DNA of 64,000 nt from positions 3,276 to 67,275 of the forward strand of contig JAFTPH010000052.1 in the NCBI GenBank assembly GCA_017463365.1, in the 5' to 3' direction. The stretch is from Bacilli bacterium. Lineage in GTDB: Bacteria > Bacillota_I > Bacilli_A > ML615J-28 > CAG-313. The notes under the pieces are model-generated. The model was not told the DNA's origin. It made no database searches and saw only the letters and a list, made by a program, of their open reading frames with translations. Positions 15,001-61,371 of the stretch are shown in pieces; position 1 is the stretch's first letter, and each line of letters begins with the position of its first letter. The position numbers and the translations under genes were made by a program.

Positions 15001-18000
15001 GTGAATGGAATAAATTCTTTACCAGCTTGGTAATATAATACAGTAGCTCTTGTATCAGCATTATCATCAAAATAGATATAACTGATTGTAGGTTTAAATT
15101 TACCATTTACATTTGCTTCTAATAAAGTGATAATAGCATCTAATGAACTAAATTTATCATCAATTAAATTTAAATCAGCAAATGTTTCTGTAATACTATT
15201 AGCATTAATTGTAGTTGCTGCACGATTATCAGTTACTTCAAAGTTAACTACACATTGATTTACAGGTTTATTTGTATCATCTGTTGGATATGTTAATGTA
15301 ATTGTATATACTCCAAGAGCATCAATTGTATTAACAATATTTCCTGCGTTATCTGTAATTTTAATTTCAACTTTTGCTAAACGAGTATTATCAGCATTTC
15401 CATTAACTTTTACACTTACACCTAATTGTGCTAATAAATCAGCTTCATTTGCTAAAGCAGCTTTAATTGCATCAGCACTAATATCTGTTGCTTCATATTC
15501 AGTATTTGTATATGTAATTTCAATTTCTTCACGTGCATCATTAACTACTAATGTAATTTCTTGACTACATGGAGCACTATCATTATCACCAGCGAAACTT
15601 AATACTACTGTATATTCTCCTGCTTTGTTAATTGTAACTCCATTTTTAACTGTTGCAGTAAGAGGACCAGCAGTAAATTTATATTCAACTTCATCATTAA
15701 TTGCATTAACAATTTCTTCACTAGTATCTAAACCAGTTTCTAAACCGCTTAATGTAGGCACATCAATAGTTACTCTTGTAGGGAAAGCAATTGAAGTTGC
15801 AGCACGCTCAATTTTGAATGTGAATGTTAATGCACTTGCTTGGTTAGTTTCACTACCTTGAATAGAAATAGTTACTGTATAAGTTCCGTCATTTACAAGG
15901 TTAAGTGTTGAATCATTATAATATTCATTACCTTCAGCATCTACGATACTTGAGATAGCAACTAAATTTGTATTTACAACATTTCCATCAGCATAAACTG
16001 CAGGAATAATTTCTTTAATTGCAGCTAATGTAGCATCATTTAATTTAGCATATACTTTTTCAGTATAAGTATCTAAAGTAACAACTGGACGGTTATCGAC
16101 AATTGTAAATGTTGCAATTGCAAATGATTGCTTAATAGTATTTGTTTCATATACAAAAGTAATTTGATAAATACCTACAGCATCAATTGCGTTCTTAGTT
16201 TGCCAATCATCACTTTTATTTACTTTAAATTTGATTTCACCAAATTTAATATTTGCATAATCAATAGAAGTAACTAATTGACCATTCACTGTTAATTCAA
16301 CATTTCCAATTATATCTAATACTTCTTTTGGAGTATCAAATAAATCATTAATAGTTGATGAACTAGTAGATGGAGTATTATATGAACCAGTACCATTCAT
16401 ACTTAAACTTGAAGATAAACGAGCATCAACAAGTTTAAATCCTAATGTTTGTGTTAATGGTTTATATGTATCGCTTCCTTCAATCTTGATTGTTACACTA
16501 TATGTAGTCTCAAATTCAACATTTTCAGGATCTGCATAAGTATCAACTGTTGCATTAGCTAAATTTACTTCTAATGTATTTAAGATATTATCTTTAGCTA
16601 ATAAAGTATCAATTGTGCTAATATCTGTAATATCAATTTCTGAATCATAAGTTACTGTATATACTGAACGAGTATCTTTAATCTTTAAAGTTACTGTTTG
16701 TTCAGGTAATCCGAAATATTTATCATTTTCGTTTACTTTAACTTTTACAGTATATGTAGCATCACCATAAGGAATCTTATCAGTGGCGTTATAATTTGTA
16801 ACCGATACAGTAATATCGCTATCTAATATAGTTACACCATTAGCAATTGTTAACTTATCAATTATTAATTTTCTGAATGTTAAATCAGCAAAATCACTAA
16901 CTTCAACTTCAATTGAAGAATTAATTGCAGGTCTTGGTCTAACATCTGAAATTTTTAATGTTATGGTAACTGGAGTTGCAGGTTTATGAGTTTCATCACC
17001 CTTACAACTTAATGCAATTGTATAAGTTCCTACAGCACCAATTCCTGTTTCAGTTTCTTCTGTTATTGTATTACCATTAACTGTAATTACTGAAGCTGCA
17101 CCATTTAATTTAAATTGCACTCCATTTGCTACAAGAAGATCAACTAATTCAGCTAATGTGTCATATGCAGAAGTACGTTCTAATTTAGAACTAAATTCTT
17201 TTGTAATTTCATTTGTTGGAACATAGAAACCAGTTTCAGTACGTCCATCATTAAGTGTGAATATTACAGTTGATTCTCCAGATCTATATTTACTATTACC
17301 ATCGTAATCAATTGTAATTTTATATTGCCCAGCTGAAGTTATTTTAGTTACTTCAGTAGTTTTTAAACTTGCATTTGAAATAGTTTCTAATGCTTCATAT
17401 TGTCCACTTGTTGAATTATATTTTTCAATAATTAATGAAAGTCCACCAATTGTTTCAGCAAGTAATCCGTATTTTGTATTTTGAATAGCACTTAATAATC
17501 CTGTTGCTCCAATAGTAGTTAATAAAGTTTCTAACTTACCATATCCAGCAAGCTCAGTTAAACTTATAAATGCACATGTTGTATCTTTAACATTAAAAAC
17601 ATAAACTTCACGAGCATCAACTACTTCAAATTGAATTGTTCCAGCAGTTGCTTTATAAGTTTCAGTATCTAAAACTACAAATGCAATATTATATATTCCA
17701 GTTGTAGTAATTGGTTTATAACTTACTGGATTTTCTGAATCAGTATTATATAAGCATTCATTATTAGAATTTGTAATACTTAAAATACTAAAAGTAGTTA
17801 CATGCATTTTATCATTTAAAAGCATCGTTTTAATTTCATCTAAAGTATCGATTTTACTGTAATCACTTACAATGTCATATAAATTAAATTTATAATTAGT
17901 AAAACTTAATTCTTCACGAGCATCAGTTACATTTAATGTAACTTCAGTTTCTGCCATTGCTTTATAAGTTTCATTTTCTGCAACTGTAACTTTAATAACA

Positions 18001-20315
18001 TAATTTTTAGTTCCATATGGAATTTTTCCATCTGTAACACCTGTAATTGTTACATCGCTTTCAGCAACTTTAACATCTAATTTGCTAATTAAATATTCTT
18101 TAAATGTAACAACACCTTTATAATCAGTAATTGTTTCATTAAATGTAGTAGCAGTAATATTTGGAGTTGTACGACTATCTGTTAATGTAGCAGATACATA
18201 ACAGTTAGAATAAACACCAGATAAGTATACTCTTACACTTTCAGAATATGTTTGATTTTTGCTCCAATCAGTACCGAATCTATCAAACGAACTTCCATCA
18301 GTTATTACAACCCATTTATCTTGACCAGCATGATTTTCTTCAAATTGGATTGTAACATTATTAATGTTAAATACATCTTTTGTAGAATCCTTTAATACAT
18401 CATAAATCTTTTGTTTTAATTTATCACCAGTAATACTTGTGATATTATAATAACTAATTTTTGTTGACGCAAAACCAAATCCAGCGTTTGCTATTGGTGT
18501 TGCTTCAACGCTTAAATTATATGTTGTTTTAGTACTAGCAGTAGTGAATGTTCCTGTCCATGTAGCACCATTCCAAGAACCGTTAATTGCTACACCATCT
18601 AATAATATTTTACTAGCTTCAAGATAGTATTGTGAAGAAGGAGTAATTGTAATTGTAACATCTTGACCAGCAGGCAATGTTGCTCCACTAGTCTCTTTAA
18701 CTTCTTCATTTACTGTAGCTGTAACAGTTGCATTAGATACAGTCCAATTTAATGTTGAATCAGTATCTTGTCTTATCACCAATGTAACTGTTTTACTTTC
18801 AGCTGCAAGATAATCAATATTTTCAGCATAATTAAATTTAATTGTGTAATCACCAAAATCAGAAATTGCAGCACCAGATAGATTTGTATATTCACTTCCA
18901 TTAATAGTTACACTACTAAAAGATTTTCCATTATCAATATTAGCATTAAACATATTAATAATATCTTGAAGTTTAAAATCTTGGCTTTCTTCAAATTCTT
19001 TTTCTATTTTATCTGGAGAAGCAGAAATTGTAGGTTTAGATCTTTTTTCAGTTAATTTTGTTTCAGGAATAACACATTTACCATATTTACCAGATAAATA
19101 CACCTTTACATTTTCATATGTTTGTATTTTATCTTCACCAACTACAGTATTAAGTAAGAATTTTGATTCATTTCCAGATAAATCAATCCATTGGTTTCCT
19201 AAATAATACTCCCAATAAATTTCTATTTTTCTATAATCTAACTTTTCATCTTTACCTTCATTTAGAGCATCCATTATTCTATTTGCAATTGGATATTCAG
19301 ATGAAGTAGGACTAAATAAACTAATTTGAGTAGTATCAAACTTAAACTCATGTTTAGTCGCATTAACCGTTAATATATAATCTGTAGCAGTTGAAGTAAT
19401 TGTATAAGATCCAGTCCATACACCTTCACTTGACCATCCGCCATCTTTATTATACGTTGCACCAGGTAAACTAATATTAGTTGATGGATCAACATAATAA
19501 TCAGTTGATGGTGTAAGTCTAATATAAATCTTTGTCCCTAAAGGTAAAGATGTAGTTGATGTTAAAGCAGAAAAACTTCCAGAATCACCAATTTTTATTT
19601 CAGCAGTAACATTATTGAGAGCTGGCTTAATAGTTGATTCTTGTGTATATGTAATATTTAATTCTACATTACTTTTTAAAGTATTCGAAATGCTATATAC
19701 ACCATTAACGGCTTCAACAGCAACTGTATTATTTTCAACAACTAATTTATGATTACTTAAAAGATTTGATGATGGAGTATAAGTAATAGTTGTTCCATTA
19801 ATTGAAAGCGAATCATAATTATCTGCTGTGTACTCTTTAACGGTATTTGAGTCAACATAAAGGGTTTCTAACAGAGCATTTTGACCACCAATTGAAATAG
19901 TAACATCTAATATATATTCATATACATCAATTGTAACACTTTTCCCTGACATAATTGAACATTTTGTAGGTGACCAACTTGTACCTAAACCACTAAAAGA
20001 ATATATTTGAATAACATCATTCTCATTGAAAGATAATGTATTTCCGGCCCCATTATTTAATGTGCTATAAGTGATTCGTTCAGGGGTCCCACCATTAACA
20101 GAATATCCATAACTACCAGTACTAGCCGAAGAATTACTAAATCCAAATATGCTAACTAAAAGTTCTTTTTCAGTAGTTATACCATTTTTCAAATGAACAA
20201 CTGATCCATCTATCACATACTCTGCCTCTACCTCTACATTAGTAGATGTGAAACCTAGGATAGATACTACAGCAATCATTGCTATAAATAATCTTAATAA
20301 AAATTTTCTATTCAT
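6009..20315 (-). CDS. giant (4768-aa) secreted, repeat-rich surface protein (putative adhesin)
   Basis: Single 14.3 kb ORF. ATG start with an AAGGAGGTG RBS. N-terminal signal peptide MNRKFLLRLFIAMIAVVSILGF. About 35-40 tandem ~100-aa repeats ending in a T-x-T-L-x-V-x-D-x-R hinge, consistent with Ig-like/beta-sandwich modules. An MBG-like segment (…FKYNGMPQG…NVGFYTVTAIYNN…). A C-terminal Cys-rich 39-aa repeat x3, then an F-rich segment, then an acidic tail. No LPXTG. Confidence 0.85.
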   Translation of the reverse strand: MNRKFLLRLFIAMIAVVSILGFTSTNVEVEAEYVIDGSVVHLKNGITTEKELLVSIFGFSNSSASTGSYGYSVNGGTPERITYSTLNNGAGNTLSFNENDVIQIYSFSGLGTSWSPTKCSIMSGKSVTIDVYEYILDVTISIGGQNALLETLYVDSNTVKEYTADNYDSLSINGTTITYTPSSNLLSNHKLVVENNTVAVEAVNGVYSISNTLKSNVELNITYTQESTIKPALNNVTAEIKIGDSGSFSALTSTTSLPLGTKIYIRLTPSTDYYVDPSTNISLPGATYNKDGGWSSEGVWTGSYTITSTATDYILTVNATKHEFKFDTTQISLFSPTSSEYPIANRIMDALNEGKDEKLDYRKIEIYWEYYLGNQWIDLSGNESKFLLNTVVGEDKIQTYENVKVYLSGKYGKCVIPETKLTEKRSKPTISASPDKIEKEFEESQDFKLQDIINMFNANIDNGKSFSSVTINGSEYTNLSGAAISDFGDYTIKFNYAENIDYLAAESKTVTLVIRQDTDSTLNWTVSNATVTATVNEEVKETSGATLPAGQDVTITITPSSQYYLEASKILLDGVAINGSWNGATWTGTFTTASTKTTYNLSVEATPIANAGFGFASTKISYYNITSITGDKLKQKIYDVLKDSTKDVFNINNVTIQFEENHAGQDKWVVITDGSSFDRFGTDWSKNQTYSESVRVYLSGVYSNCYVSATLTDSRTTPNITATTFNETITDYKGVVTFKEYLISKLDVKVAESDVTITGVTDGKIPYGTKNYVIKVTVAENETYKAMAETEVTLNVTDAREELSFTNYKFNLYDIVSDYSKIDTLDEIKTMLLNDKMHVTTFSILSITNSNNECLYNTDSENPVSYKPITTTGIYNIAFVVLDTETYKATAGTIQFEVVDAREVYVFNVKDTTCAFISLTELAGYGKLETLLTTIGATGLLSAIQNTKYGLLAETIGGLSLIIEKYNSTSGQYEALETISNASLKTTEVTKITSAGQYKITIDYDGNSKYRSGESTVIFTLNDGRTETGFYVPTNEITKEFSSKLERTSAYDTLAELVDLLVANGVQFKLNGAASVITVNGNTITEETETGIGAVGTYTIALSCKGDETHKPATPVTITLKISDVRPRPAINSSIEVEVSDFADLTFRKLIIDKLTIANGVTILDSDITVSVTNYNATDKIPYGDATYTVKVKVNENDKYFGLPEQTVTLKIKDTRSVYTVTYDSEIDITDISTIDTLLAKDNILNTLEVNLANATVDTYADPENVEFETTYSVTIKIEGSDTYKPLTQTLGFKLVDARLSSSLSMNGTGSYNTPSTSSSTINDLFDTPKEVLDIIGNVELTVNGQLVTSIDYANIKFGEIKFKVNKSDDWQTKNAIDAVGIYQITFVYETNTIKQSFAIATFTIVDNRPVVTLDTYTEKVYAKLNDATLAAIKEIIPAVYADGNVVNTNLVAISSIVDAEGNEYYNDSTLNLVNDGTYTVTISIQGSETNQASALTFTFKIERAATSIAFPTRVTIDVPTLSGLETGLDTSEEIVNAINDEVEYKFTAGPLTATVKNGVTINKAGEYTVVLSFAGDNDSAPCSQEITLVVNDAREEIEITYTNTEYEATDISADAIKAALANEADLLAQLGVSVKVNGNADNTRLAKVEIKITDNAGNIVNTIDALGVYTITLTYPTDDTNKPVNQCVVNFEVTDNRAATTINANSITETFADLNLIDDKFSSLDAIITLLEANVNGKFKPTISYIYFDDNADTRATVLYYQAGKEFIPFTKVGTYKVVLSYAATDTHLAAENKEVTINVIDGREVIVLQNTVNEYPVSNISKDAISSKFTTIDDLFKIIGLKVLVNGNEANRLGKLTYTVSDGDKNYYNETGNVIEKVGNYSIKVTYPESNTNHKAELVVSFDIKDKRSVVTIDANNVSNPGIGFADLSQIPGQFDTLEEILKTINLSVKFDGTAQNYMTLVNNGNVKVTITDAGKNELTALTKVGVYTVTIEYIDDDTHDYKSEPKSVTLTLEDKRINPVIDENISKEVSDFNTTDTALEVLELIKNYIKDEKGNILDLSKQTYTIKVNGGNNGITSAGEYTVTVFVEDSDTCNAKTLETTLTIIDVRPTAVISVPNTSVGVDNLNEDLYSINSLDKVLEELGAYVSVGGVKDLSIKPRISAIYVGTINSIDDVDDLGVYYADSDAYYPIGSYKIDIPGKGFVKFDQISTYTIRLHLEDTKSYKVTVKEVTVNLKLTDQRQASTMTVAPIEPVDIYNTNWASIGRTFDKAAILNLFKAGIVVNGNAMVAGTVSVSDIDGELIDAITDYGSHTITFKFAGDNTHKPCTQTATLTLVDARPEPTIPSELSINVPDYGKDIIAQIKTLVLNNLTANANGQEVTIDANKVTVTIGNGITSIPVGYDGTYELKVTVAESETYKATTAKVTLTVNDTRSETSIEAKDYSFAEPDYSAIAGKYDEDSEIRNVLNATIVTTGTALDASNIVVTRYETINSIGTYYIELKFNGDMTHKPSVEVYKKIELTNGRKTTTMTVENVPFDASTSATIAENFKTLESVLAKFNVVVNDGTETIVSPNVVITRIEELDRDGNVKEVIYSGGDYNTFISNIATYKVTFKYVEDDTHNECTSHATITITDGRTPCTIDVANTVTLNVTDFGTIDTLAEIINQLNVKVLIGESVVENPTIVVQSIVDAENNSYINGTDCTINAAGTYTIAFAVEATSSYGTSNATVKVVVNDNRIATEITYTPKGLATDNFNKVFNIISELNIAVKDVAGATVEITEILLNDSSVEQVRLAGTYDIYVKYNATDLYKECTKRIRFTIDDTRTEISIDDIELTVDDFSIVDSISKVKAIIKSNIELNGGAITSISEINDSHFSISGITKINKGNGVYNITYRLTESETYKGITNTIQLTINDNRIDTRINVSNTPIVVNEPNINSSAINIKYNSSEKLVTAVNAYIENVINNQITKADGLVIKATADKTVNAVGNYVITLSFEGDNTHKPAQTVTAILSLQDGRSTTKLSIPDVELEYSNHTTLANDFKLKDNVLKKFSISLIIGDQTISSPNVKIKSIVDENEVSYYEEYDITEIISGGAYKDPIVKPGLYTVTFEYEATDTTLGCTGTAVIEIKDTRPTTSIDWIDPNVDSNNFLELEAKYNTLDKVLEALECVIKNQNNISVDGNVVINVIYQGELSLTGTILSRDNIYYSNGKHTISTTLGNVSVPVKDYVPLNKAGTYTIELEFIETATHQGSKATATFTVTDTRAESTVTFTDPMISFDNRLNIATRFDTLDKVLAALTPNVNGVNGVSGLSIVSVFNGTKAYYNPNGYDLPIIGSNKVIDFNGLDQFGEYTVTVSFAGDNTYQPGEYTAKLTVVDGRVDATLVWEYDTYVESKLTDSETLFSSLDILTQYINPMVKIGNGEYYSSELTITSIRKGLDLSDILGSLGEDLNLSDLTEEGLKKLGFYYIQQGVEIGGYNIPINVSYKELDEATDYTITFVYAGTDTVKGFETEMTFTVSDGRPSGEIYVPNLSYDAYNFGQIPVKFDSLESLLAYLNPTVQVETFEGINVSYQGTFEIDLIVRIDLADPEIYYSKGLTLLGKEYGAQAYEPLDNVGKYTIHISCPGAAEYQKCDTTITFEIKDMRGESETECEEVTIYEDDLSTIGSDFETLEKVLKAFNPVAYDAKGNRIDDAEFYISAIYKGSILDFANLGNNIYYMESILGKTIDYKGIDSVGEYNVIIKFKGNNSSQPSDVTVKLTIVDARPETQVNLKSDVVTQVLPTDYVTKEEVFNLVFESVSIKGNTASIVDYGYVSANVTLNSLSSATNTEITQITEAGVYTITVKFPATSTHLGSEATVEFMVSDGRNVTKVTNNDVLEIPFVKGDVLSLDQIVEDLGIGLYDETNGVVLNKEFTYALYRGTTEIQASSITTFGQTYTILVNYAGDDEYAPCSKRVEFTVVDGRTKTYIDAATSISVVYNNYTAEDVYNLLLDGYLGAYIINENGIKVAIDKAEIRFSLSDAQIETLNAGDHTITLSYAGSEYDYQPATLTCTITVEKAPAKVNVVSGSFNYKDIKGTGVNISERITTEPELEVIELAIGLNASAGMMSYLNIPNLIDLDSVPESVRPYVQTILDNLGFNEQMSISELKAAIEGIKDALEMLENLVGVSLSSDALDSTIKLLEQLEKISSTTGIEIMLTMGKDIYLEEAGLYLIGAVTTSQNYETAFGLGYITIIPDATKVELGFNVEVENFMVTKASIMQDPTILGAHVKKDGLSQELYEAATSKLATLYIGIDINGEQYVTDQPISELGAYTQIAYTRDLGNEMLYAIPIVRVYTVVIDTISVEFVNDDAEFKYNGMPQGLIPEAYADNGDILPNEYLTCYYNGVMSNGEVYSSTELPTNVGFYTVTAIYNNPELLQYGLAVGTMTIYAEEHGMSLEDVELFHDGEPHNVVINNPYGLEEIILVLGNDTHTVNVILPESWGVKDEFFDIQGQLSPLVKLIHILQLFADNELIDKVEEILSDLPLNSIAVNGDSPVEAGRYEYIVIGYKQNYDLFTGEAVLNLKHNLVAKQTDNYHWQECTICDYYTDFSGHTYGDWQVEQAHTCITDGIETRYCSGCDHFETRTTEATGHLFVEWNKVKNPKCYEVGIEVSTCERCGEAGQRDIATIPHTYTHWEDTVEATTDEPGKAESHCDVCGHVGVKRTPTKTIFEVFEDFFDKLFDFFNSFFNKLNNIINALAGNPDDEETKEQATDDLYDLYFGEEEESKE

Positions 20316-20821: not shown

Positions 20822-21835
20822 TTATTTTATTTTCCAATATCCAGTTTTATCTGAACCTACTCTTTCTATTAGTTTGTTTTCCGCTAAATATTTAATATTT
20901 CTTCTCACTGTCTCTTCTGATTTATTTATTTCTTTTGAAATTAATGCATATGTGATATTTGGATTTTTAACTATAATGTCATAAATTTGTTGTTGGGTTT
21001 TATTTAATTTTACACCCACATTTACACCCACATTTACACCCACATTTTCTTGTGAATTTTGTACTTCTTCTCCAATAATATATGCAAAAGGTATTTTTAC
21101 TTTAATAAAATTATCTAAGAATTCGAATACTTCTTTTCCATATTTATCTACTACTAATGAAACACCATGACCAGTTTGTTCAATAAGTCCAAGTTGAATA
21201 AAAATTCTTGTAAGAACCTCATTAACTGGTTTACTAACTCCACTAAAGAAATCTTGTTTTGTAATACCACTTGCTAATCCACCAGTTGAAACAATTTCTA
21301 GGTGATCATCAAATATATAAACAGCAGGTGGAGTTCCATCCATCCAATCATTATGTAAACAAGCATTATACCAACTTTCTCTAAAAGCATCTGTATCAAA
21401 TAATTTTATATCTTTTCTAATGCCATTTTCAAATATGGTTTTTGTTGTATTGATTACATCAACGCAATAAGCATATGCTTGTTTCATTGAAACAATTAAA
21501 CATTTATATCCATATTCATTTCGATATTTAATATTACTTGCTTTTGTATATCCATCAAATACAACAACTTTTATTGATATATCGTTATCATCTGCCAATA
21601 AATTTGCCTGTAAATTGTACTTATAATCTTTAGTTAATAGTTTTAAATTATTTTCAAATGTTTCATCATTTACTGATAACCCTTTTTCTGTATATAACAT
21701 TTTTAAATACTGAAACTTTAGATTTTGTTCTCTAGCTTCAATATCAATTATTTTAGAATTTCTAGTCATATATTTATTAAAGTAATTTACAATTTGTTCT
21801 TCAGTCATTGATTTAGCAGTTGTACCTATTCTCAT
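20822..21835 (-). CDS. C-terminal part (HATPase_c-like + wHTH) of a second COG2865-type regulator paralog; probably a frameshift-split gene
   Basis: 337 aa homologous to the C-terminal two thirds of the 4336-5775 product (…IVSTGGL…GHGVSLV…). The C-terminal wHTH is NITYALISKEINKSEETVRRNIKYL. It contains a (VGVN)3 insertion encoded by a 12-bp tandem repeat. Confidence 0.5.
   Translation of the reverse strand: MRIGTTAKSMTEEQIVNYFNKYMTRNSKIIDIEAREQNLKFQYLKMLYTEKGLSVNDETFENNLKLLTKDYKYNLQANLLADDNDISIKVVVFDGYTKASNIKYRNEYGYKCLIVSMKQAYAYCVDVINTTKTIFENGIRKDIKLFDTDAFRESWYNACLHNDWMDGTPPAVYIFDDHLEIVSTGGLASGITKQDFFSGVSKPVNEVLTRIFIQLGLIEQTGHGVSLVVDKYGKEVFEFLDNFIKVKIPFAYIIGEEVQNSQENVGVNVGVNVGVKLNKTQQQIYDIIVKNPNITYALISKEINKSEETVRRNIKYLAENKLIERVGSDKTGYWKIK
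21013..21048. repeat. 12-bp tandem repeat CACCCACATTTA x3 inside a coding region (encodes VGVNVGVNVGVK on the minus strand)
   Basis: Read directly. Three in-frame copies, the last with one substitution. Confidence 0.9.
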
Positions 21836-23051: not shown

Positions 23052-23097
23052 TATATTTGTGCTGATGATTAAAAAACACAAATTTAATAAAAAACTA

Positions 23098-23166
23098 TCA
23101 CAAATCTCTTAAACAAAATGCCACAAATCTCTTAAACAAAATACCACAAATCTCTTAAACAAAATA
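23098..23166. repeat. three tandem 23-bp direct repeats (C)CACAAATCTCTTAAACAAAAT(G/A) abutting the -35 of the downstream ATPase gene
   Basis: Read directly. A degenerate fourth copy (CACAAATTT) lies just upstream. A TTTACA-17-TATAAT promoter follows at 23168-23196. Confidence 0.85.
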
Positions 23167-23217
23167 CTTTACATTTATTTTATTATAATGTATAATACTA
23201 TTAGAAGAGGTGTTTTT

Positions 23218-45786: not shown

Positions 45787-46884
45787 TTACTCATAACGAT
45801 GTTCTTTTTTTACTCCAGTCACTACCAATTCATCATTTTGATAAATAGATATCAGTGTACTAGTAACTTTACCGAAATAACTTTCCTCATCCCACTCATC
45901 TATAATATAACTTAATCCACACTTATCACAAACTCCTGAAGTAATTGTATGAGAGATATTATTGGCATCTTCTTTCTTAACTACTGTAACATCACTTATA
46001 ACACAATTGATCTTAATTTCTTGTATTTCATCAATTGACCCACACACTTTACATTTATAACATTCAATGTTTCCACCACATGATGAATATTTAGATAAAT
46101 CAATTATATTTCCACTGGTAATAATATGTCCTGAACTTTTTGATTTAGCAACTTGATCACATTTTTTACATGTTTCAATAATTTCATAACCATTTAAACA
46201 ATCTTCACCACTTAAAATATAGGAAATATCATTATCATGATCATAATAAACTCTTTGATCATAAAATTCACCAATTATTTCATCACCTAAAATAAAGGAA
46301 GAAACAATATAATTTAATACTCCACAATTATCAAAATATTTAGTCCACATCTTTTGTTCATAATTTAATCCACAAGTTTTACACTCTAAAACCGATACTT
46401 CATATTTGTACCCATTAGCATCTTGTTGAATAACAATTTCTTTTTCTTTATTTGGTACAAAATTACAATTACCATTAATAACCATTCTCGTACCAGATGA
46501 ACCACACACCAAACATTCACCTTTAGTAGCCGAATTCATACATACATCATAATTTTCGAAATTAATTGAGACATCCTCAAACTTATGTTTTTCACAACTC
46601 TCAATTGAACCACACTTATAGCATTCACCTTTTTCATACTCATGGCTGCATATGATACTACATTCCTTACACATACCTCTATTCCACTTATGTTCAATTG
46701 GAAGATCATTTTGTTTAGTTATCCCACACAAGTTACACTTACATTCTTCAAGTCCTTCACTTGTACATGTCGCTGAAACTAATTCATACCATTCACCAAA
46801 TTCATGGTTACATTCTTTATCACAGCCAACCAGACATGTTATTAATAAAAACAAAACTATAGAACTTAAAATTACTTTCTTCAA
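45787..46884 (-). CDS. Cys-rich lipoprotein built from W/Cys/His repeat units (putative multi-zinc-ribbon surface protein)
   Basis: 365 aa with lipobox …LLITCLVGCDKE. About 36 Cys in repeated H..GEW…TC…G…C.C..C units. TTG start with an AAGGAG RBS. Confidence 0.6.
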   Translation of the reverse strand: MKKVILSSIVLFLLITCLVGCDKECNHEFGEWYELVSATCTSEGLEECKCNLCGITKQNDLPIEHKWNRGMCKECSIICSHEYEKGECYKCGSIESCEKHKFEDVSINFENYDVCMNSATKGECLVCGSSGTRMVINGNCNFVPNKEKEIVIQQDANGYKYEVSVLECKTCGLNYEQKMWTKYFDNCGVLNYIVSSFILGDEIIGEFYDQRVYYDHDNDISYILSGEDCLNGYEIIETCKKCDQVAKSKSSGHIITSGNIIDLSKYSSCGGNIECYKCKVCGSIDEIQEIKINCVISDVTVVKKEDANNISHTITSGVCDKCGLSYIIDEWDEESYFGKVTSTLISIYQNDELVVTGVKKEHRYE

Positions 46885-47020
46885 AATCTAAATCTCCTTA
46901 TTTTGTTGTTTTTTTAGTTACTTATATTATACAATTAAATTTTATTTATTTCAAATCTTAAATCTTTTATAATTCAGCTTTTATTACAACGCCGATCCCT
47001 ACTTCCCTTAATGAATGAAA

Positions 47021-47046
47021 AAATAGGTCTTATAAAGACCTATAAA
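47021..47046 (-). terminator. rho-independent terminator (ATAGGTCTT-ata-AAGACCTAT followed by a T-run on the minus strand)
   Basis: 9-bp perfect stem followed by TTTTTT on the minus strand. Related to the GGTCT…AGACC hairpins at 1495 and 1897. Confidence 0.6.
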
Positions 47047-47083
47047 TTTTAGTTATGGCAAACATTACCTATTTTAATACAAT

Positions 47084-47155
47084 TTCGTACCCCTACTATA
47101 AAAGTTCGTACCCTAGCAGTATTTTTCCGTACCCTTGTATTAAAAATCTGTACCT
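47084..47155. repeat. four direct repeats T(T/C)CGTACC(C/T) spaced exactly 21 bp apart
   Basis: Copies start at 47084, 47105, 47126 and 47147 (read directly). Confidence 0.85.
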
Positions 47156-47179: not shown

Positions 47180-47275
47180 TTATTGAATATTTTCAATAAA
47201 ATCATCAATCAATTTAATATATCCGTCAGGATTAAACATAATAGCAAGATGGTCTCCAGCTATCGTAGATATTGT
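47180..47275 (-). pseudogene. short relic resembling the C-terminus of an alpha/beta-hydrolase (…TIAGDHLAIMFNPDGYIKLIDDFIENIQ*)
   Basis: Translation of the minus strand gives a ~31-aa stop-to-stop fragment with a G-D-H catalytic-His-like motif near a C-terminus. No upstream ORF remains. Confidence 0.25.
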
Positions 47276-47329
47276 TCAAATGATAAGCAAGCTTGTTCTA
47301 TTTTGTCAACACAATCATTTCATCAAATT

Positions 47330-47908
47330 CTAATTTCTTCTTCCTATATAACGAAACACTTTATTTTTATATGTGATATATGTTTCTCCAAAAGTTTTCT
47401 CTAAATACTTTTCTTCTTGAAGAATTTGAAAATGTAACATAACAATAGCAAATAATGAAAAAATTATCGTTAAAACATTACAATACAATAAACAAATTCC
47501 GATGTACATTAAATCAAAACCTAAAAATGCTGGATTCCTACTTATTTTATAAATTCCATTAGAAATAAATTCTGTATTATCTTCACTTGGGATTCCTGCT
47601 CTCCAGCTGTTCTTCATAGTTATTATAGATATTAAAAATAATATATTCCCTATTATCCCAACTGCAAAACCAATAAATCTAATGTTATCATTTAAAATAG
47701 TTAAATCAAATATTATCGAAATTAGTTGTATTGGAACAATTACAAGTGTTGCAATGGATAGTAAAATTTCTACGCTTCTAATATTTAGATTTTTCCCTTT
47801 TCCGAGCTGTCTCGTTTTAATTCCTTGTTTTTTTTGAACAATCATTTTTCCATAATAAATACCATAAAATATTATCATTATTGATAATGCCAAAATTTTA
47901 TAAACCAT
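47330..47908 (-). CDS. isoprenylcysteine carboxyl methyltransferase (ICMT/PEMT) family membrane protein
   Basis: 192 aa with 4-5 TM and a C-terminal …ISRNPAF…EEKYLEKTFGETYITYKNKV… family signature. Confidence 0.6.
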   Translation of the reverse strand: MVYKILALSIMIIFYGIYYGKMIVQKKQGIKTRQLGKGKNLNIRSVEILLSIATLVIVPIQLISIIFDLTILNDNIRFIGFAVGIIGNILFLISIITMKNSWRAGIPSEDNTEFISNGIYKISRNPAFLGFDLMYIGICLLYCNVLTIIFSLFAIVMLHFQILQEEKYLEKTFGETYITYKNKVFRYIGRRN

Positions 47909-47935
47909 TTTCTTCCTCCGTGTGTGCGATAACTT

Positions 47936-48268
47936 CTACTTTATCAATGCGTCTATGAACACTTTCTTTAATATCTCAAAAGGTAATTCTTGATTTACAA
48001 ATACTTGTAACATACCTTTAGGTGTAATTTTAAAACCAGAAAGTTCATCTTTATAATTAATAATTGCTTTTGCTTCAACGTTAATATGGTCTTTAAATGG
48101 AATTAATCTTACGAATGATTCACAAACATAATAAGTTGGTAGCTTAGCCCACATTTTTTCCTCAATATCTACTGACACACTATTATATATTAATTTACGA
48201 AGCTCTTGAAATAAATCAATAATTTCTGTTGGATATTTCTCAATATATATTTTAATTTCTTCATTCAT
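47936..48268 (-). CDS. DUF1801 (YdhG-like) domain protein
   Basis: 110 aa. Pattern …MWAKLPTYYV…GMLQVF… typical of DUF1801. Confidence 0.5.
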   Translation of the reverse strand: MNEEIKIYIEKYPTEIIDLFQELRKLIYNSVSVDIEEKMWAKLPTYYVCESFVRLIPFKDHINVEAKAIINYKDELSGFKITPKGMLQVFVNQELPFEILKKVFIDALIK

Positions 48269-48286
48269 AACCTACACCACCAAATT

Positions 48287-49012
48287 CTATTTGTATTCAT
48301 TATATAAAACCGGCAATATTTCTACTAGATTTCTATATTCTATGCAACAATGTATCGCCATATCTATTGCCATTTTTTTATTAATAATTAGCTTTTTTAA
48401 TAATTTATTATTCATAAATTTACCTAGCCAAAATCTACTTATTAGAAACAACCCATTTTCTGTTTGCTTGAAAATATGAGTCATTTCAGTATGTTTAATT
48501 ATGTTATTAAATACACCTACGTGACCACATACAATTTTATGGATATTATTATCATTCATAATTTTACTATCAAAACCGAACTCTTCAGGAGTTTTGAAAT
48601 CAATTCTCAAAGGCATTTTCATTCTTCCAATTTTTTCAGTTGGATATTGTGTGTTAGGCACAAAATTTTGATAATCTTTGCATTTAAAATAACTCTTATC
48701 TTTCTTATGAAACTTGATTTTAATATGACTATTAGGATACCATACTTGATATCTAATACTTTCTTGAGCATGCCACCAAAACCACCAAGAAATCATATCA
48801 GCAGTAATATTGGGCATCGGACATACCATAGATACAAGATATGTTCCGTCTTCAAACTTAGCGATACCAACTTCGTTTTGCAAATCAACATTATATAATA
48901 TTTCATTTTTATTTTCAAATGAAGTCAACGTAATATTTGCTTTATGAATCTTATATTTTATATCATCTGGTATAACTGGTAATGTTTTAATTAAAAGCTG
49001 TTTTATGTCCAT
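48287..49012 (-). CDS. hypothetical protein (Trp/His-rich)
   Basis: The ATG at 49012 has an AGGTGG RBS. The GTG at 49024 is unlikely to be the start. Contains …ISWWFWWHAQESIRYQVWYP…. No confident family. Confidence 0.45.
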   Translation of the reverse strand: MDIKQLLIKTLPVIPDDIKYKIHKANITLTSFENKNEILYNVDLQNEVGIAKFEDGTYLVSMVCPMPNITADMISWWFWWHAQESIRYQVWYPNSHIKIKFHKKDKSYFKCKDYQNFVPNTQYPTEKIGRMKMPLRIDFKTPEEFGFDSKIMNDNNIHKIVCGHVGVFNNIIKHTEMTHIFKQTENGLFLISRFWLGKFMNNKLLKKLIINKKMAIDMAIHCCIEYRNLVEILPVLYNEYK

Positions 49013-49298
49013 ATATTTTACCACCTATCAATTGGTAATTACTAATTTATCTGTCAACTAATTATACCACAAAAACTTGATTTATACTATTAATATGTAA
49101 ATCGTTAAAAGGTTCGTAATCGTTAAATTGTAAAACTTCGCACGTGTTCGCTTTTTATTTTTTGCTCGAAAAAGTGTCCATTAAAAAAAAAAAAAAAATA
49201 CACAAGTGGCAAATAAAAGACATAACAGTAGGACTTGAACCCCTATAAAAATAAAAAATCTCGATACGTTAAATTGTATCAAGATTAGTAATCTAATA

Positions 49299-49375
49299 TG
49301 GGGCGAATGATGGGATTCGAACCCACGCGTGACGGAGCCACAATCCGCTGTGTTAACCACTTCACCACATTCGCC
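49299..49375 (-). tRNA. tRNA-His (anticodon GUG) with encoded G-1
   Basis: Manual fold: G-1 plus GCGAATG/CATTCGC acceptor, C73, anticodon loop TTGTGGC, CCA encoded. Confidence 0.85.
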
Positions 49376-56012: not shown

Positions 56013-56036
56013 TTGCGCCGTCATTTGCGCCGTCAT
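56013..56036. repeat. two perfect tandem copies of the GC-rich 12-mer TTGCGCCGTCAT
   Basis: Read directly. Unusual GC-rich motif in an AT-rich intergenic region upstream of the XRE gene. Confidence 0.85.
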
Positions 56037-56122
56037 TTTAATCACATCAAAAATTCAATTGACAATTGAATACTTTCTAAATTCTAGTTATTGATTAATT
56101 CAATTAAATATTATATAATTTT

Positions 56123-58589: not shown

Positions 58590-61371
58590 ATCCAAAAATG
58601 TATTCGTATAATGATTCTTTTTGTTCTTCTTCATCATCCATTGCGAAAATAGATTGAATGAATGAAGAAAATGATTTAGCAACTTGATCTAAATTTAAAG
58701 CATCACTAACTGAACCAGCCATATCTGATGTAGAACCAAAAATATTACCGATACTATCAAAGATATTTCCAATTGCAGTCATACCTCTTTCTATTAAGTC
58801 AGCGAAAGTAACTTTTCTAATTGCTTCTGTTTCAAAATGATCACAGTTAGCACAATCTTTTTGTTTTAATCCTTCTACTTGTGTAGAAGCTTCTTTTACT
58901 ACATACCATTCACCCATAGCATGTCCTGTTGCTGCAATAGGTTGTGTTTCAAAATGATCACAATTAGCACAATCTTTTTGTTCTAATCCTTCTGCTTCAC
59001 ATTTTGCAGGTTCAACTACATACCATTCACCCATAACATGTCCTGTTGCTGCGATAGGTTGTGTTTCAAAATGATCACAATTAGCACAATCTCTTCTTTC
59101 TAATCCTTCTGCTTCACATTTTGCAGCATCAACTACAGTCCATTCATCATAAGTGTGACCTGTTGCAGGAATTTCTTTATATGTTGTATAATCACATTTT
59201 GAACATGTAACATACGCTTCCCAACCAATATTTTCACAATCTTCTACCTTTCCAGCATGTTCTTCTAGTTTATGAATACAGTATCCCCATACTACAGGGC
59301 ATATACCATTCCAGTTATCTGCCCATGTATCAGGTTTAGCTTCAGCTTCACAGTAGATTGTTAGGTTAGGACACACACTAAATACTGACTGATCTAATCT
59401 TGCATCACTAACGCTTAATGGAATATAAACACTCTTTAAATTAGCACAAACTGAGAATGCATTTAAATAAAGTGAAGTTAAACTTTCAGGTAATGTAATT
59501 GTTTCTAAACTTGTACATCTAGAAAAAGCAGATTGTTCAATATAACTTAGAACACTTCCTTCTTCAAAATTAACATTTTTTAAACTTGTACAATTACTAA
59601 ATGCAGAAATAGAAATACCTTTAACTGATTTAGGAATAGTAATTTCTTTTAAATTTATACATCCTTTAAAAGCAGATCCATATATATATTCAATGCCTTC
59701 GGCCAATATAACTTCTTCTAAATTAACACATCCTTCGAACATATAATTGTAAACATACTTAGTTTTTGTATTTTCTTCATATGTTACTTTCGTTAATCCT
59801 TCATAACCATAGAATTTATAATAACCGCTATACCAACTAATACCACTTGGAATAACTACTTCTGTTAAGTAATAATATTCATTATTTTCATCTAATAAAT
59901 AGAATTTTTTAGCTACTGAAATAGGATTACGAGTTTTCTCATTAGTATTTGTTGTTAAAAATCTAGCTAATGTTTTTGCATAATACACATCTTTTATTTC
60001 TGGACATCCATTAAACGCATATTGATTAAAATTACTCAATGTACTTGGTAAAGATAAAGTTTCTAAATTTTCACATCCACTAAATGCAAAAGCACCTAAA
60101 CTTTTAACACCTTCAGATAATGTAATTGATTTAAGATTTTTGCAACTATTAAATGCATTATTGTTAATACTTGTAACACCTTCGGGAGTAACAAAGCTTT
60201 CAGCTTTCTTACCAGCAGGATATGCTAATAATGTTTTACCATCAACAGAATATAATACACCATCAACACTCTTATATGTTTCATTTTTAACATCTACATT
60301 AATTGCTTCTAAACTTGTACATCCTAAAAATTCATTAGCATCAATACTTGTAATTCCACTAGCAATAGTTACACTTGTGATATCAGTGTTTCCAGCAAAT
60401 GTACCAGGTAAAATTTCTGTTACAACTAATCCTTTATATTCCTTTTGAATAATAACATCTTTATCTGTACATGTTCCCATACCAGACAATACAGCTTTTT
60501 TAGGAATATTATAATACTCATCTACAATTGCCCAGTTTACTCCATTTCTAATTCTTTGTGCCAAAAATTCACGAACATATATTTTCCACATAAAAGGACT
60601 ACTAGGCATTTTATTAACCATATCAAAATAATAATTCATTTTCAATGATATGTATTCAAATAACCAACTCCATTTAGCCCACATTGCTTCATCATTTACA
60701 AATGAATCACTATTAGCATTATACATATGGTTGCCAAATTTTGAAGTAAAAGTATTTAAATTAAAATCACCTTCTGTTCCACAATGAGTATTTAAGTCTT
60801 TCATAAAGTCAGCCACTAATGCTTCATGACTTTCATAGTTGTTAGTTGAAACAATTACTTTACCATCTACTGAGATAATACCCTCAACAATTTCATATTT
60901 TAAACCAGCACTTACTTTTTCTCCACAGTTTAAGCATGCACTACCTTCATAGTTATGTCTTAATTCAGGGATTTCTACATATGTTGTATAACAACATTTT
61001 TCACATGTTTGGTAAGCTTGCCAACCAATTTCTTCACATTTTGCTTCTTTTCCAGCATGGTCTACTAGTTTATGATCTCCACAATCTAAAACTAACCATT
61101 TAGCAACATAAGTCCCTGTTGCGTTAACAGCAACAACTTTTTGTTCAGCTAAGTACCATCCTTGGAATACGTAACCATCTCTAGTTGGTACAGGTAAAAT
61201 ATAACCCGTTTCAACAGTAGTTTCAGGTTCACTTGCGAATTCACCACCATTTAAAATGTAAGTAACTTCGTATTTTTGTACTTCACTACTTTCTTCTGCT
61301 TTAATATTGATATTAAATAAACATACTAATACCACTATTAATAAAGAAGTAATTTTTAAAATCTTTCTCAT
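58588..61371 (-). CDS. secreted BspA-type leucine-rich-repeat surface protein with Listeria-Bacteroides repeat, Cys/His/Trp repeats and an acidic C-terminal tail
   Basis: 927 aa with a signal peptide MRKILKITSLLIVVLVCLFNINIKA. Flg_new-like GYVFQGWY. Multiple LRR_5-type repeats (…AFxxCxxLxxIxIP…). A C-terminal triplicated GHxxxEW…C…CANCDHFET…ATGH unit, then an I/F-rich segment, then DDEEEQKESLYEYIFG. Confidence 0.8.
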   Translation of the reverse strand: MRKILKITSLLIVVLVCLFNINIKAEESSEVQKYEVTYILNGGEFASEPETTVETGYILPVPTRDGYVFQGWYLAEQKVVAVNATGTYVAKWLVLDCGDHKLVDHAGKEAKCEEIGWQAYQTCEKCCYTTYVEIPELRHNYEGSACLNCGEKVSAGLKYEIVEGIISVDGKVIVSTNNYESHEALVADFMKDLNTHCGTEGDFNLNTFTSKFGNHMYNANSDSFVNDEAMWAKWSWLFEYISLKMNYYFDMVNKMPSSPFMWKIYVREFLAQRIRNGVNWAIVDEYYNIPKKAVLSGMGTCTDKDVIIQKEYKGLVVTEILPGTFAGNTDITSVTIASGITSIDANEFLGCTSLEAINVDVKNETYKSVDGVLYSVDGKTLLAYPAGKKAESFVTPEGVTSINNNAFNSCKNLKSITLSEGVKSLGAFAFSGCENLETLSLPSTLSNFNQYAFNGCPEIKDVYYAKTLARFLTTNTNEKTRNPISVAKKFYLLDENNEYYYLTEVVIPSGISWYSGYYKFYGYEGLTKVTYEENTKTKYVYNYMFEGCVNLEEVILAEGIEYIYGSAFKGCINLKEITIPKSVKGISISAFSNCTSLKNVNFEEGSVLSYIEQSAFSRCTSLETITLPESLTSLYLNAFSVCANLKSVYIPLSVSDARLDQSVFSVCPNLTIYCEAEAKPDTWADNWNGICPVVWGYCIHKLEEHAGKVEDCENIGWEAYVTCSKCDYTTYKEIPATGHTYDEWTVVDAAKCEAEGLERRDCANCDHFETQPIAATGHVMGEWYVVEPAKCEAEGLEQKDCANCDHFETQPIAATGHAMGEWYVVKEASTQVEGLKQKDCANCDHFETEAIRKVTFADLIERGMTAIGNIFDSIGNIFGSTSDMAGSVSDALNLDQVAKSFSSFIQSIFAMDDEEEQKESLYEYIFG

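Follow-up and report, generated by a model that had tools for sequence, protein, structure and literature searches.

Anatomy of the insert at tRNA-His

The stretch of DNA analyzed here (the window; 64,000 nt of contig JAFTPH010000052.1 from a Bacilli bacterium, assembly GCA_017463365.1) has a G+C content of 29% and contains, at positions 47084–47155, an array of short phased repeats, designated array A. All of the genes neighboring the array are on the minus strand, and the region is therefore read on that strand. The array lies at one end of a 2.24-kb insert (49298 to 47056), located between the CCA end of a tRNA-His gene and an intrinsic terminator at 47018–47043, and there is little doubt that it is the end of an integrated cassette of the family described below. 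In the overall explanation that we favor, and consider fairly probable, array A is the sub-terminal end of a tRNA-inserted cassette that lacks a recombinase gene, and its repeats are sites for a recombination protein.

On the minus strand, array A reads as four GGGTACGRA units in 21-bp phase: AGGTACAGA (47155–47147, degenerate), GGGTACGGA (47134–47126) and two copies of GGGTACGAA (47113–47105 and 47092–47084). The initial annotation had described four TYCGTACCC copies (on the plus strand) spaced by exactly 21 bp. The spacing was confirmed from the positions of the copies, and three of them are exact (TTCGTACCC at 47084 and 47105, and TCCGTACCC at 47126); the fourth (TCTGTACCT at 47147) is in phase and retains GTACC and 7/9 bases, but has two mismatches and thus misses the pattern. 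The three exact copies are the only ones in the whole window (shuffle expectation 0.18; at least three in 0/100 shuffles), and the same architecture was found at about 50 independent loci, so that the motif clearly occurs above chance. The 12-bp spacers are unlike one another, with A-tracts and T-tracts alternating 3′ of the cores; these differences set it apart from a plain tandem repeat, and it was missed by Tandem Repeats Finder (TRF). A repeat search also revealed an 11-bp perfect inverted repeat enclosing three of the units: TTTTAATACAA (47135–47145, minus strand), within the unit-4 spacer, is an inverted copy of the outer motif of the dyad described below, and its partner lies at 47072–47082. 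Canonical members of the family carry an equivalent TTTTGATA in the spacer beside the last unit.

The insert begins directly after a pair of genes for tRNA-Trp and tRNA-His (49450–49299, minus strand; ARAGORN and Rfam). The encoded CCA end of tRNA-His (49299–49374) at position 49299 forms the left insertion junction (the left half of attB), which reads ...TTCGCCCCA/TATTAG.... The first segment of the insert, the P′ half-site TATTAGATTACTAATCTTGATACAAT (49273–49298, minus strand), includes the outer dyad motif TTGATACAAT and is homologous to the right half of a 54-bp dyad defined from 20 aligned full sites. In L002 (L-numbers are labels for the related loci and contigs that were compared with the window), an identical left end stands behind the CCA of tRNA-Lys; L182 and L166 have related left ends behind tRNA-Lys and tRNA-Leu, respectively. 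The left end of the insert also brought in an intrinsic terminator, T1 (49247–49283, minus strand; CTTGATAC-N8-GTATCGAG plus a T-run), which now terminates the tRNA operon. The T1-equivalent helix covaries strongly across the family (a score as high as that observed in 0/500 shuffles; two-sided changes in 14 cells).

At the opposite end, the last unit of array A is followed by the P half-site ATTGTATTAAAATAGGTAATGTTTGCCA (47056–47083, minus strand), whose last bases are the crossover dinucleotide CA, and the right junction falls between 47056 and 47055. The adjoining segment (47018–47055, minus strand), regarded as the original 3′ flank of tRNA-His (the right half of attB), consists of TAACTAAAATTT and the hairpin ATAGGTCTTTATAAGACCTAT with its T-run, detected in the terminator scan at 47018–47043. 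A hairpin with a T-run lies within approx. 40 nt of the CCA at other tRNA clusters of the window, and the 47018–47043 hairpin is most simply interpreted as the displaced terminator of the tRNA-Trp/His operon. The two junctions of the insert share only CCATA; the distal end carries a T-arm-like 9–11-mer, and no copy of the 3′ end of tRNA-His was found there.

The cargo of the cassette (47181–49024, minus strand; Pfam and BLAST) comprises a DAPG_hydrolase-like gene (48287–49024), an open reading frame (ORF) of 110 aa (47936–48268), a gene for a methyltransferase of the ICMT/PEMT family (47330–47908) and the relic of an alpha/beta hydrolase gene (approx. 47181–47290). No recombinase gene was found in the cassette by Pfam. 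The placing of the array downstream of a gene relic and upstream of a terminator in the initial annotation is therefore correct on the minus strand, these features being the hydrolase relic and the hairpin with T-run at 47018–47043.

Evidence for integration from related loci

Both flanks of the insert have homologues that are contiguous in L209, a contig of the IMG/VR database. The segment 47147..47054 of the window (94 nt; the array and the P half) corresponds to L209rc 5281–5374 with 91.5% identity, and the segment 49301..49173 corresponds to L209rc 5370–5494 with 84.5% identity, the two matches overlapping by 5 nt (CCATA). Sequences that adjoin in L209 are thus held apart in the window, which indicates that the window carries an integrated element extending from 49298 to 47056. 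L209 is the closest relative; its array keeps the spacers of the window (TTTTTAATACAA, AAAAATCTGCTA and CTTTTATAGCAG), and each of its units is GGGTGCGAA. The core has thus been exchanged in all of the units while the spacers remained the same, as would be expected of repeated sites for a single sequence-specific partner.

Two close relatives, L002 and L003 (96–97% identity over the ICMT region), contain an intact hydrolase gene (297 aa). The relic in the window is the C-terminal fragment of this gene, 850 internal bp being missing in comparison with L002 (2619–3468), and in L002 the 110-aa ORF is split by a frameshift. These lesions, read from the two sequences, point to continuing decay of the cargo in both copies. 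The homology between the window and L002 ends at GCCA, exactly at the junction, beyond which L002 has a different terminator and a different gene. The arrays of L002 and L003 consist of one unit only, GGGGTACGGAAATGTATCAAAATAGGTAGTGTTTGCCA. The possibility that the array belongs to the alpha/beta hydrolase gene was rejected, since this gene has homologues of 72–79% identity in other Clostridia without a GGTACG motif downstream; the array is therefore not a feature of the hydrolase gene.

A family of array modules with a common crossover site

A two-unit pattern was scanned over 185,579 species genomes and returned at least 120 loci, mostly chance matches in GC-rich genomes. Among the matches listed, loci from AT-rich metagenome-assembled genomes (MAGs) of Bacilli and Clostridia shared the architecture of the window. 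A family-specific pattern then identified 40 loci in the metagenomes of the Joint Genome Institute, many of them at contig ends, and in all about 50 further loci were obtained from MAGs of Bacilli and Clostridia, digester metagenomes and IMG/VR contigs. Their common architecture is two to seven units at intervals of 19–22 bp (mostly 20–21), then ATTGTATYAAA and then the crossover. A blastn search of the region against plasmids and phages returned nothing relevant, a scan of viral sequences for three phased CGTACCC cores matched nothing but perfect tandem repeats of 21 bp, coding or satellite, that are unrelated to the array, and a literature search on the motif strings yielded only primers and unrelated matches; this family of cassette ends is widespread and apparently undescribed.

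Statistics were compiled from 47 non-redundant modules. The number of units is most often four (19 modules), with two in 8, three in 10, five in 5 and seven in one module, and the period is 21 bp in 78 cases, 20 bp in 41, 19 bp in 4 and 22 bp in one. The core (G)GGGTACGAA is at least 98% conserved across 164 units; the spacers are far less conserved, and A- and T-tracts alternate behind the cores as in the window. The proposal of the initial annotation that such phasing is the signature of a regulator or of iteron-like sites is thus borne out insofar as this is a genuine phased, iteron-like array (period 20–21 bp), but the link that it drew to a lipoprotein gene (see below) is not. In every case the array is unidirectional and internal to the element, with the last gene on one side of it and the half-site on the other. 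Its last unit continues into ATTGTATYAAAAT, and in 29 modules ("full sites") the sequence runs on as ...CTAACACA/TATTAGAAC..TTTGATACAAT followed by a terminator. Fourteen modules are "left-only", like that of the window, their sequences diverging past the CA.

The alignment of 20 full sites defined a 54-bp imperfect dyad, 95% complementary, with a CA at its center that is invariant (20/20). The outer motifs of the dyad are ATTGTATCA and TGATACAAT, in the layout ATTGTATYAAA...CA/TA...TTGATACAAT; the two halves are those that the window holds apart, at 47056–47083 and 49273–49298.

Behind tRNA genes the cassettes are often arranged head-to-tail, with a cargo of defence and accessory genes. Among 150 flanking ORFs, this cargo includes AbiEii, ThsB_TIR, Fic, Schlafen/AlbA_2, DNA methylases, XRE regulators, ABC transporters and surface proteins with leucine-rich repeats. 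At least five other core types share the architecture: GGGGTGCGTRA, GGGTGCTAAAA (with a period of 31–33 bp), GGGGTGTAGTNA, GGTATGCCAAA and GGTGTACGCAA (27–28 bp). Modules with such cores (L062(-)2236 and 6180, L182(+)3638, L078(+)2680 and 7588, L195(-)1402, L174, L197 and L221) recur every 2–6.6 kb in direct orientation on the same contigs.

Upstream of the array of L062, L168, L183, L197 and L162 we observed a minimal element without cargo, in which only about 85 nt separate the left junction from the first unit; its order is left end, terminator hairpin holding a fifth unit (AGGAGGTACGAAAAGTATCTC), and array. At L062, L168 and L197, the end of the preceding element contributes to a TTGACA-17-TACAAT promoter that spans the junction.

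Several further features were noted in the left ends. A second array in the window, array B (49097–49127, minus strand), consists of two TTTAACGATT(T)AC repeats approx. 19 bp apart and lies upstream of the extended −10 box TGGTATAAT (49061–49069) of the first cargo gene. Homologues of array B (AACTTTTGAACGATTAC in three to four copies, or AAAACACGAAAG in two) occupy the same position in L062, L114, L182, L188, L163 and L194, and array B looks like a candidate operator for the cassette's own promoter. A further variant of array B, six repeats of approx. 30 bp (TTGCACTATTTAATTATT...), is present in the left-end region after tRNA-Leu in L166 (approx. 400–600). Finally, a pseudo T-arm, GGGGTTCAAGTCC, is located 3′ of T1 in the left end (window 49231–49243, minus strand) and also occurs in L002 and L209; it resembles a piece of a tRNA 3′ end that has become part of the element.

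Linkage to large serine recombinases

Large serine recombinases (LSRs) are encoded next to the array in several relatives of the window cassette. In L209 the products of two tandem genes, 431 and 535 aa long, both have the domains Resolvase, Recombinase and Zn_ribbon_recom, and the other neighbors of its array are a helix-turn-helix (HTH) protein and small ORFs. An LSR pair located upstream of the array and co-oriented with it was found in L203, L208/213, L209, L221 and L245, the second gene ending 155–245 nt before the dyad in L203, L208 and L209 (155 nt in L209). In L175 a tandem LSR pair is present further upstream, and in L190 an LSR confirmed by Pfam is accompanied by another ORF of its cluster.

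LSRs are the sole recurrent recombinases encoded by the 150 flanking ORFs, and the 25 families listed for this set, out of 117 matched, do not include Phage_integrase. A motif scan of approx. 250 kb of family loci revealed no tyrosine-recombinase or HUH signature, one weak R..H..R..Y match being judged spurious. The identity groups of the larger LSR follow the core type of the associated arrays.

We also observed a conserved non-coding stretch of approx. 150 nt (…CCCTAGATAGCAC…GGTGATGCTCGGCATTCAAGTACCTATGGGCCGTAATAGATAGC…) between the LSR stop codon and the array in L203 (13058–13200) and L208 (8635–8790), which may be a structured RNA.

Comparison with known recombination systems

Serine integrases act on attachment (att) sites of less than 50 bp, in which the two sides of a central dinucleotide are partly symmetric as a dyad and which are usually free of accessory sites (PMC1470463). 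The sites described here resemble those of the LSRs of phages Bxb1, phiC31 and A118 in being imperfect dyads of approx. 50 bp with a central non-palindromic dinucleotide (here 54 bp and CA), in adjoining the recombinase gene (in relatives such as L209, but not in the window cassette), and in forming hybrid junctions to which each partner contributes one half (PMC1470463). They differ in that all 47 modules have a phased array of two to seven units beside one half-site, the LSR genes come as a pair and not singly, several different tRNA 3′ ends are targeted, and the elements are stacked head-to-tail.

Paired serine recombinases, and a target at the 3′ end of a gene for an essential RNA or an rRNA methylase, are features shared with the staphylococcal cassette chromosomes (SCCmec/SCC, with ccrAB) and with the islands of Dehalococcoides, where CcrB-like LSRs (DsiB) have built tandem islands at the 3′ end of ssrA; these systems likewise form tandem islands, many of them without a recombinase, with accessory and restriction or defence cargo (PMC3146451). 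The ssrA islands, however, are inserted in the T-loop and are accompanied by direct repeats of ssrA 20 bp in length, whereas the junction found here lies after the CCA and only approx. 5 bp (CCATA) are shared. We know of no report of a phased repeat array at the ends of SCC elements or of ssrA genomic islands.

Short direct repeats on one face of the helix, within approx. 100 bp of the crossover and of element-specific sequence, are also characteristic of the arm-type Int sites and the Xis/Cox (recombination directionality factor) arrays in the attP of tyrosine integrases (lambda, L5 and P2), where such repeats help to form a bent recombination complex (PMC1470463). The family loci differ from these systems in several respects: they lack a detectable tyrosine recombinase, the outer repeats are 32 bp apart, as is typical of LSRs, rather than core sites flanking a 6–8-bp overlap, and the 15–50-bp direct repeat of the tRNA 3′ end that marks the distal end of tyrosine-integrase islands is absent.

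The cassettes share with integrons (attI with DR1/DR2) direct repeats flanking the crossover, an organization in series of co-oriented, promoter-poor or self-contained cassettes, and accessory and defence cargo; unlike integrons, they have no IntI, an array end is present on each cassette in place of one attI and folded attC sites, and the platform is a tRNA gene. With regard to the ends of IS200/IS605-like elements, the points of comparison are hairpins with TTTGATA/TATCAAA stems, equally oriented at the two ends, and a position of the insert 3′ of CA with no target duplication; the motif scan gave no HUH signature, and the recombinases linked to the arrays are LSRs. A Tn7- or Mu-like transposon end with multiple transposase sites was rejected, since the array pairs are direct and not inverted and L002 shares both flanks.

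Proposed role of the array

In the mechanism that we propose, a pair of ccrAB-like LSRs, supplied in trans in the case of the window copy, would catalyze recombination at the CA between tRNA 3′ ends and the 54-bp site carried by the excised element. Two to seven recognition sites would be offered by the array, on one face of an intrinsically curved (A/T-tract) helix and 28–110 bp from the crossover, to an element-encoded protein. This protein could be either recombinase of the pair, or else a factor with an accessory or directionality function, and its binding would help to assemble or direct the recombination complex. The window copy itself, whose own recombinase is absent and whose outer unit is degenerate, is probably an orphan or decaying end. 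The more specific assignment, that the array is a protein-binding accessory array for recombination, is drawn from sequence comparison and remains tentative; we would give it slightly less than an even chance.

The units would then be repeated recognition sites for an element-encoded protein of variable specificity that acts in recombination. A number of observations weigh against this explanation. Characterized LSR systems typically function without accessory DNA sites (PMC1470463), which makes an accessory array unusual, and none of the 47 modules has the simple site, free of accessory repeats, that is expected of an LSR. Head-to-tail arrays are also not predicted by the canonical attP × attB rules of serine integrases. 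Since the window cassette has no gene for a recombinase or DNA-binding protein, the array may be inert there, and L002, which is 96% identical, has only a single unit. Common descent of linked DNA could be enough to explain why the identity groups of the LSRs follow the core type. An unoccupied tRNA-His site was sought by means of the neighboring proteins and was not recovered, because the related assemblies break at tRNAs and the contigs stop there; the interpretation of the 47018–47043 hairpin as a displaced terminator consequently rests on comparison. Finally, the arrays are co-oriented with the flanking genes (8/8 upstream and 6/7 downstream of those checked), which, together with a promoter-like site in L209, leaves room for a role at the RNA level.

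Alternative explanations

The initial annotation also raised the possibility of an array for an RNA-binding protein in a 3′ untranslated region. If the array acted as RNA, it would form part of the minus-strand 3′ untranslated region of a cargo or recombinase operon, or of a small RNA with its 3′ end at the next terminator, in which hairpins or repeated GGGGUACGAA sites would be recognized by an RNA-binding protein or a complementary RNA. Besides the co-orientation of the modules with their flanking genes, the minus-strand fold of the array region (z = −2.98), with the 11-bp stem around three units, and the presence of a terminator approx. 40–90 nt further on in most of the members shown are consistent with this idea. 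The C/T of TTGTAT(C/T)AAA faces an invariant G and is thus compatible with G-U wobble, some spacer pairs show compensatory variation, and in L209 a TTGTGT-17-TATAAT promoter-like site was noted by eye between the LSR terminator and the array. However, the only Rfam matches at gathering thresholds in the window and 12 family loci were tRNAs, with none to the curated covariance models of riboswitches, mini-ykkC or type III antitoxin repeats. The helix between spacer and half-site is 71.6% paired, barely above the 68.1% of shuffled sequences, the helix of the dyad is invariant and does not covary, and the hairpin partners vary among the members. Promoter-like sites upstream of the arrays were found in 13/46 cases versus 15% of controls, a modest enrichment without a fixed position, and the downstream terminators are accounted for by insertion, being those of the tRNA or the T1 of the next element. 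We therefore consider an RNA-level function unlikely. Of two specific forms of it, a transcription attenuator with alternative 1:2/2:3/3:4 pairings is not supported, since covariation is confined to the terminator helix, and additional terminators and a promoter of their own lie beyond it. Guanidine-II-like (mini-ykkC) ACGR hairpins were rejected, since only unit 2 can form a hairpin with an ACGA loop and the Rfam search was negative.

Direct repeats of approx. 21 bp with A/T-rich flanks and cores of variable specificity are equally reminiscent of iterons, and the array might accordingly be the origin or a centromere-like site of an excised circle, served by Rep or Par proteins encoded in cis by autonomous relatives or supplied in trans by a helper. 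The iterons of plasmids, phages and Staphylococcus aureus pathogenicity islands (SaPIs) are likewise phased at approx. 20 bp, with a short conserved core and a lineage-specific sequence, and the Rep helicases of SaPIs and SCC elements bind short iterons (PMC9371898). AT-rich phage contigs (L007 7057–7107, L033, L034 4090–4119, L035 and L036) were found to contain 21–22-bp iterons with GGGTACGGA within a gene for a replication initiator of 277 aa (phrog_428, phrog_678), which in L034 is followed by a gene for a G39P-like helicase loader, the textbook layout in which the origin is contained in the gene of the initiator. These phage loci are, however, a different setting from that of the arrays, and the likeness to their iterons (L007, L034–36) was partly forced by the search pattern. 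Rep, primase, helicase and Par proteins are absent from the recurrent families of the 150 flanking ORFs, the array of L209 is accompanied by two LSRs, the HTH protein and small ORFs with no adjacent initiator gene, and the units are unidirectional, without the AT-rich unwinding center between opposed iterons that is found in SaPI origins (PMC9371898). A role in replication or partition is accordingly given a low probability.

The resemblance of the units to tRNA deserves separate mention. The units (GGGGTACGAAT) could be copies of the T-arm of the target (GGGGTTCGAAT), by which the right end of the element would regenerate a landing site, or they could be debris of tRNA 3′ fragments. The unit is a single base away from the T-arm of the L002 tRNA-Lys (GGGGTTCGAAT), insertion occurs exactly after the CCA, the right ends also terminate in CA, the cassettes are stacked head-to-tail, and the left end has its own pseudo T-arm (GGGGTTCAAGTCC). 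This likeness was spotted post hoc, however, and the distance from the last unit to the CA is approx. 10 nt greater than that from a T-arm to the CCA. Moreover, the cores GGGGTGCGTAA, GGTGTACGCAA, GGTATGCCAAA and GGGTGCTAAAA are far less similar to a T-arm, and debris would neither hold a core at 98% conservation nor change it in concert. Mimicry of the T-arm seems to us to have only a slim chance of being correct.

The initial annotation regarded the array as lying upstream of a gene for a Cys-rich lipoprotein (start at 46884, minus strand), which would make it an operator or activator array of that gene. A regulator of the LytTR type would be one example of a binding partner. LytTR sites consist of two 9-bp direct repeats with a 12-bp spacer and are located immediately 5′ of the −35 box of the promoter that they control; the array matches this repeat geometry, and it is located 200–271 bp upstream of the lipoprotein start. 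This reading does not survive, since the array is cut off from the gene by the insertion junction (47056 and 47055) and by the terminator interpreted as that of the tRNA operon. A near-consensus promoter directly serving the lipoprotein gene is present (TTGAAA-17-TATAAT, 46926–46954), and at the distance required for a LytTR operator the array is followed by the half-site, junction and terminator and not by a promoter. The array family precedes unrelated genes, the L002 array end joins a different downstream gene, and the lipoprotein is an orphan without homologues, so that no conserved association of array and gene exists. Such regulation is extremely improbable.

Further repeats and a second element family

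A similar type of array was observed in a second, distinct element lineage, in which three GGGTACGAA units, 20–21 bp apart, start approx. 45 nt inside a sharp element end (GAGAACAAAAC..TTTGATACA..). Its loci (L045, L073, L101, L124, L137, L147 with two copies, L148 and L153) belong to cultured Peptoniphilaceae (Murdochiella, Levyella, Kallipyga and Aedoeadaptatus), Atopobium minutum and Actinotignum urinale. These elements interrupt unrelated genes, including two N6-methylase genes after the motif GEF(F/Y)TP, and carry genes for TetR and ABC exporters; no recombinase was found within 5 kb. The same array type therefore also occurs beside the opposite (left-type) end, in another element lineage.

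Several other repeats are present in the window. At 56013–56038, directly after the terminator of tRNA-Glu and before a TTGACA box, TTGCGCCGTCAT is repeated 2.2 times, forming an array at a tRNA cluster without the left-end sequence of the family. TRF identified 4.0 copies of the 23-bp unit CACAAATCTCTTAAACAAAATAC (three near-identical and one diverged) at 23077–23167, abutting a TTTACA-17-TATAAT promoter that precedes an ORF of 436 aa (list start 23188; ATG at approx. 23219) with the N-terminal P-loop motif GPKGCGKTT; this repeat looks like an operator. A perfect 12-bp repeat (TTTACACCCACA, 3.2 copies) is located at 21009–21047 within a minus-strand ORF (20822–21835), and a single ORF of 4768 aa, presumably encoding a giant surface protein, occupies 6009–20315 on the minus strand. 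A 117-bp tandem repeat of 2.7 copies (88% matches) at 58828–59146 appears, by eye, to encode on the minus strand a Cys-rich repeat like that of the lipoprotein (45787–46884).

Implications

Taken at its widest, the proposed explanation would describe a hitherto unrecognized cassette platform of the Bacillota, with a ccrAB-like LSR pair that mobilizes cargo and defence cassettes, precise insertion after the CCA of tRNA genes, head-to-tail stacking, and phased, lineage-specific and T-arm-like arrays that would be the first accessory sites of arm type in an LSR system, conferring specificity or directionality and providing a new landing pad. We regard this extension as speculative and not particularly likely to hold in full. 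If the explanation is true, serine integrases are not always simple-site enzymes, which bears on how directionality and target choice may be built into such systems and on their use in genome engineering. The conserved end (unit array, ATTGTATYAAA and CA crossover) provides a tag by which cassettes can be delimited in fragmented metagenome assemblies, where many contigs break at the repeats of this family. For the bacteria concerned, the explanation would account for the way in which small cassettes without a recombinase, carrying defence genes (AbiE, Thoeris TIR, Fic, Schlafen-like genes and methylases), pile up behind the tRNA genes of uncultured Bacilli and Clostridia.

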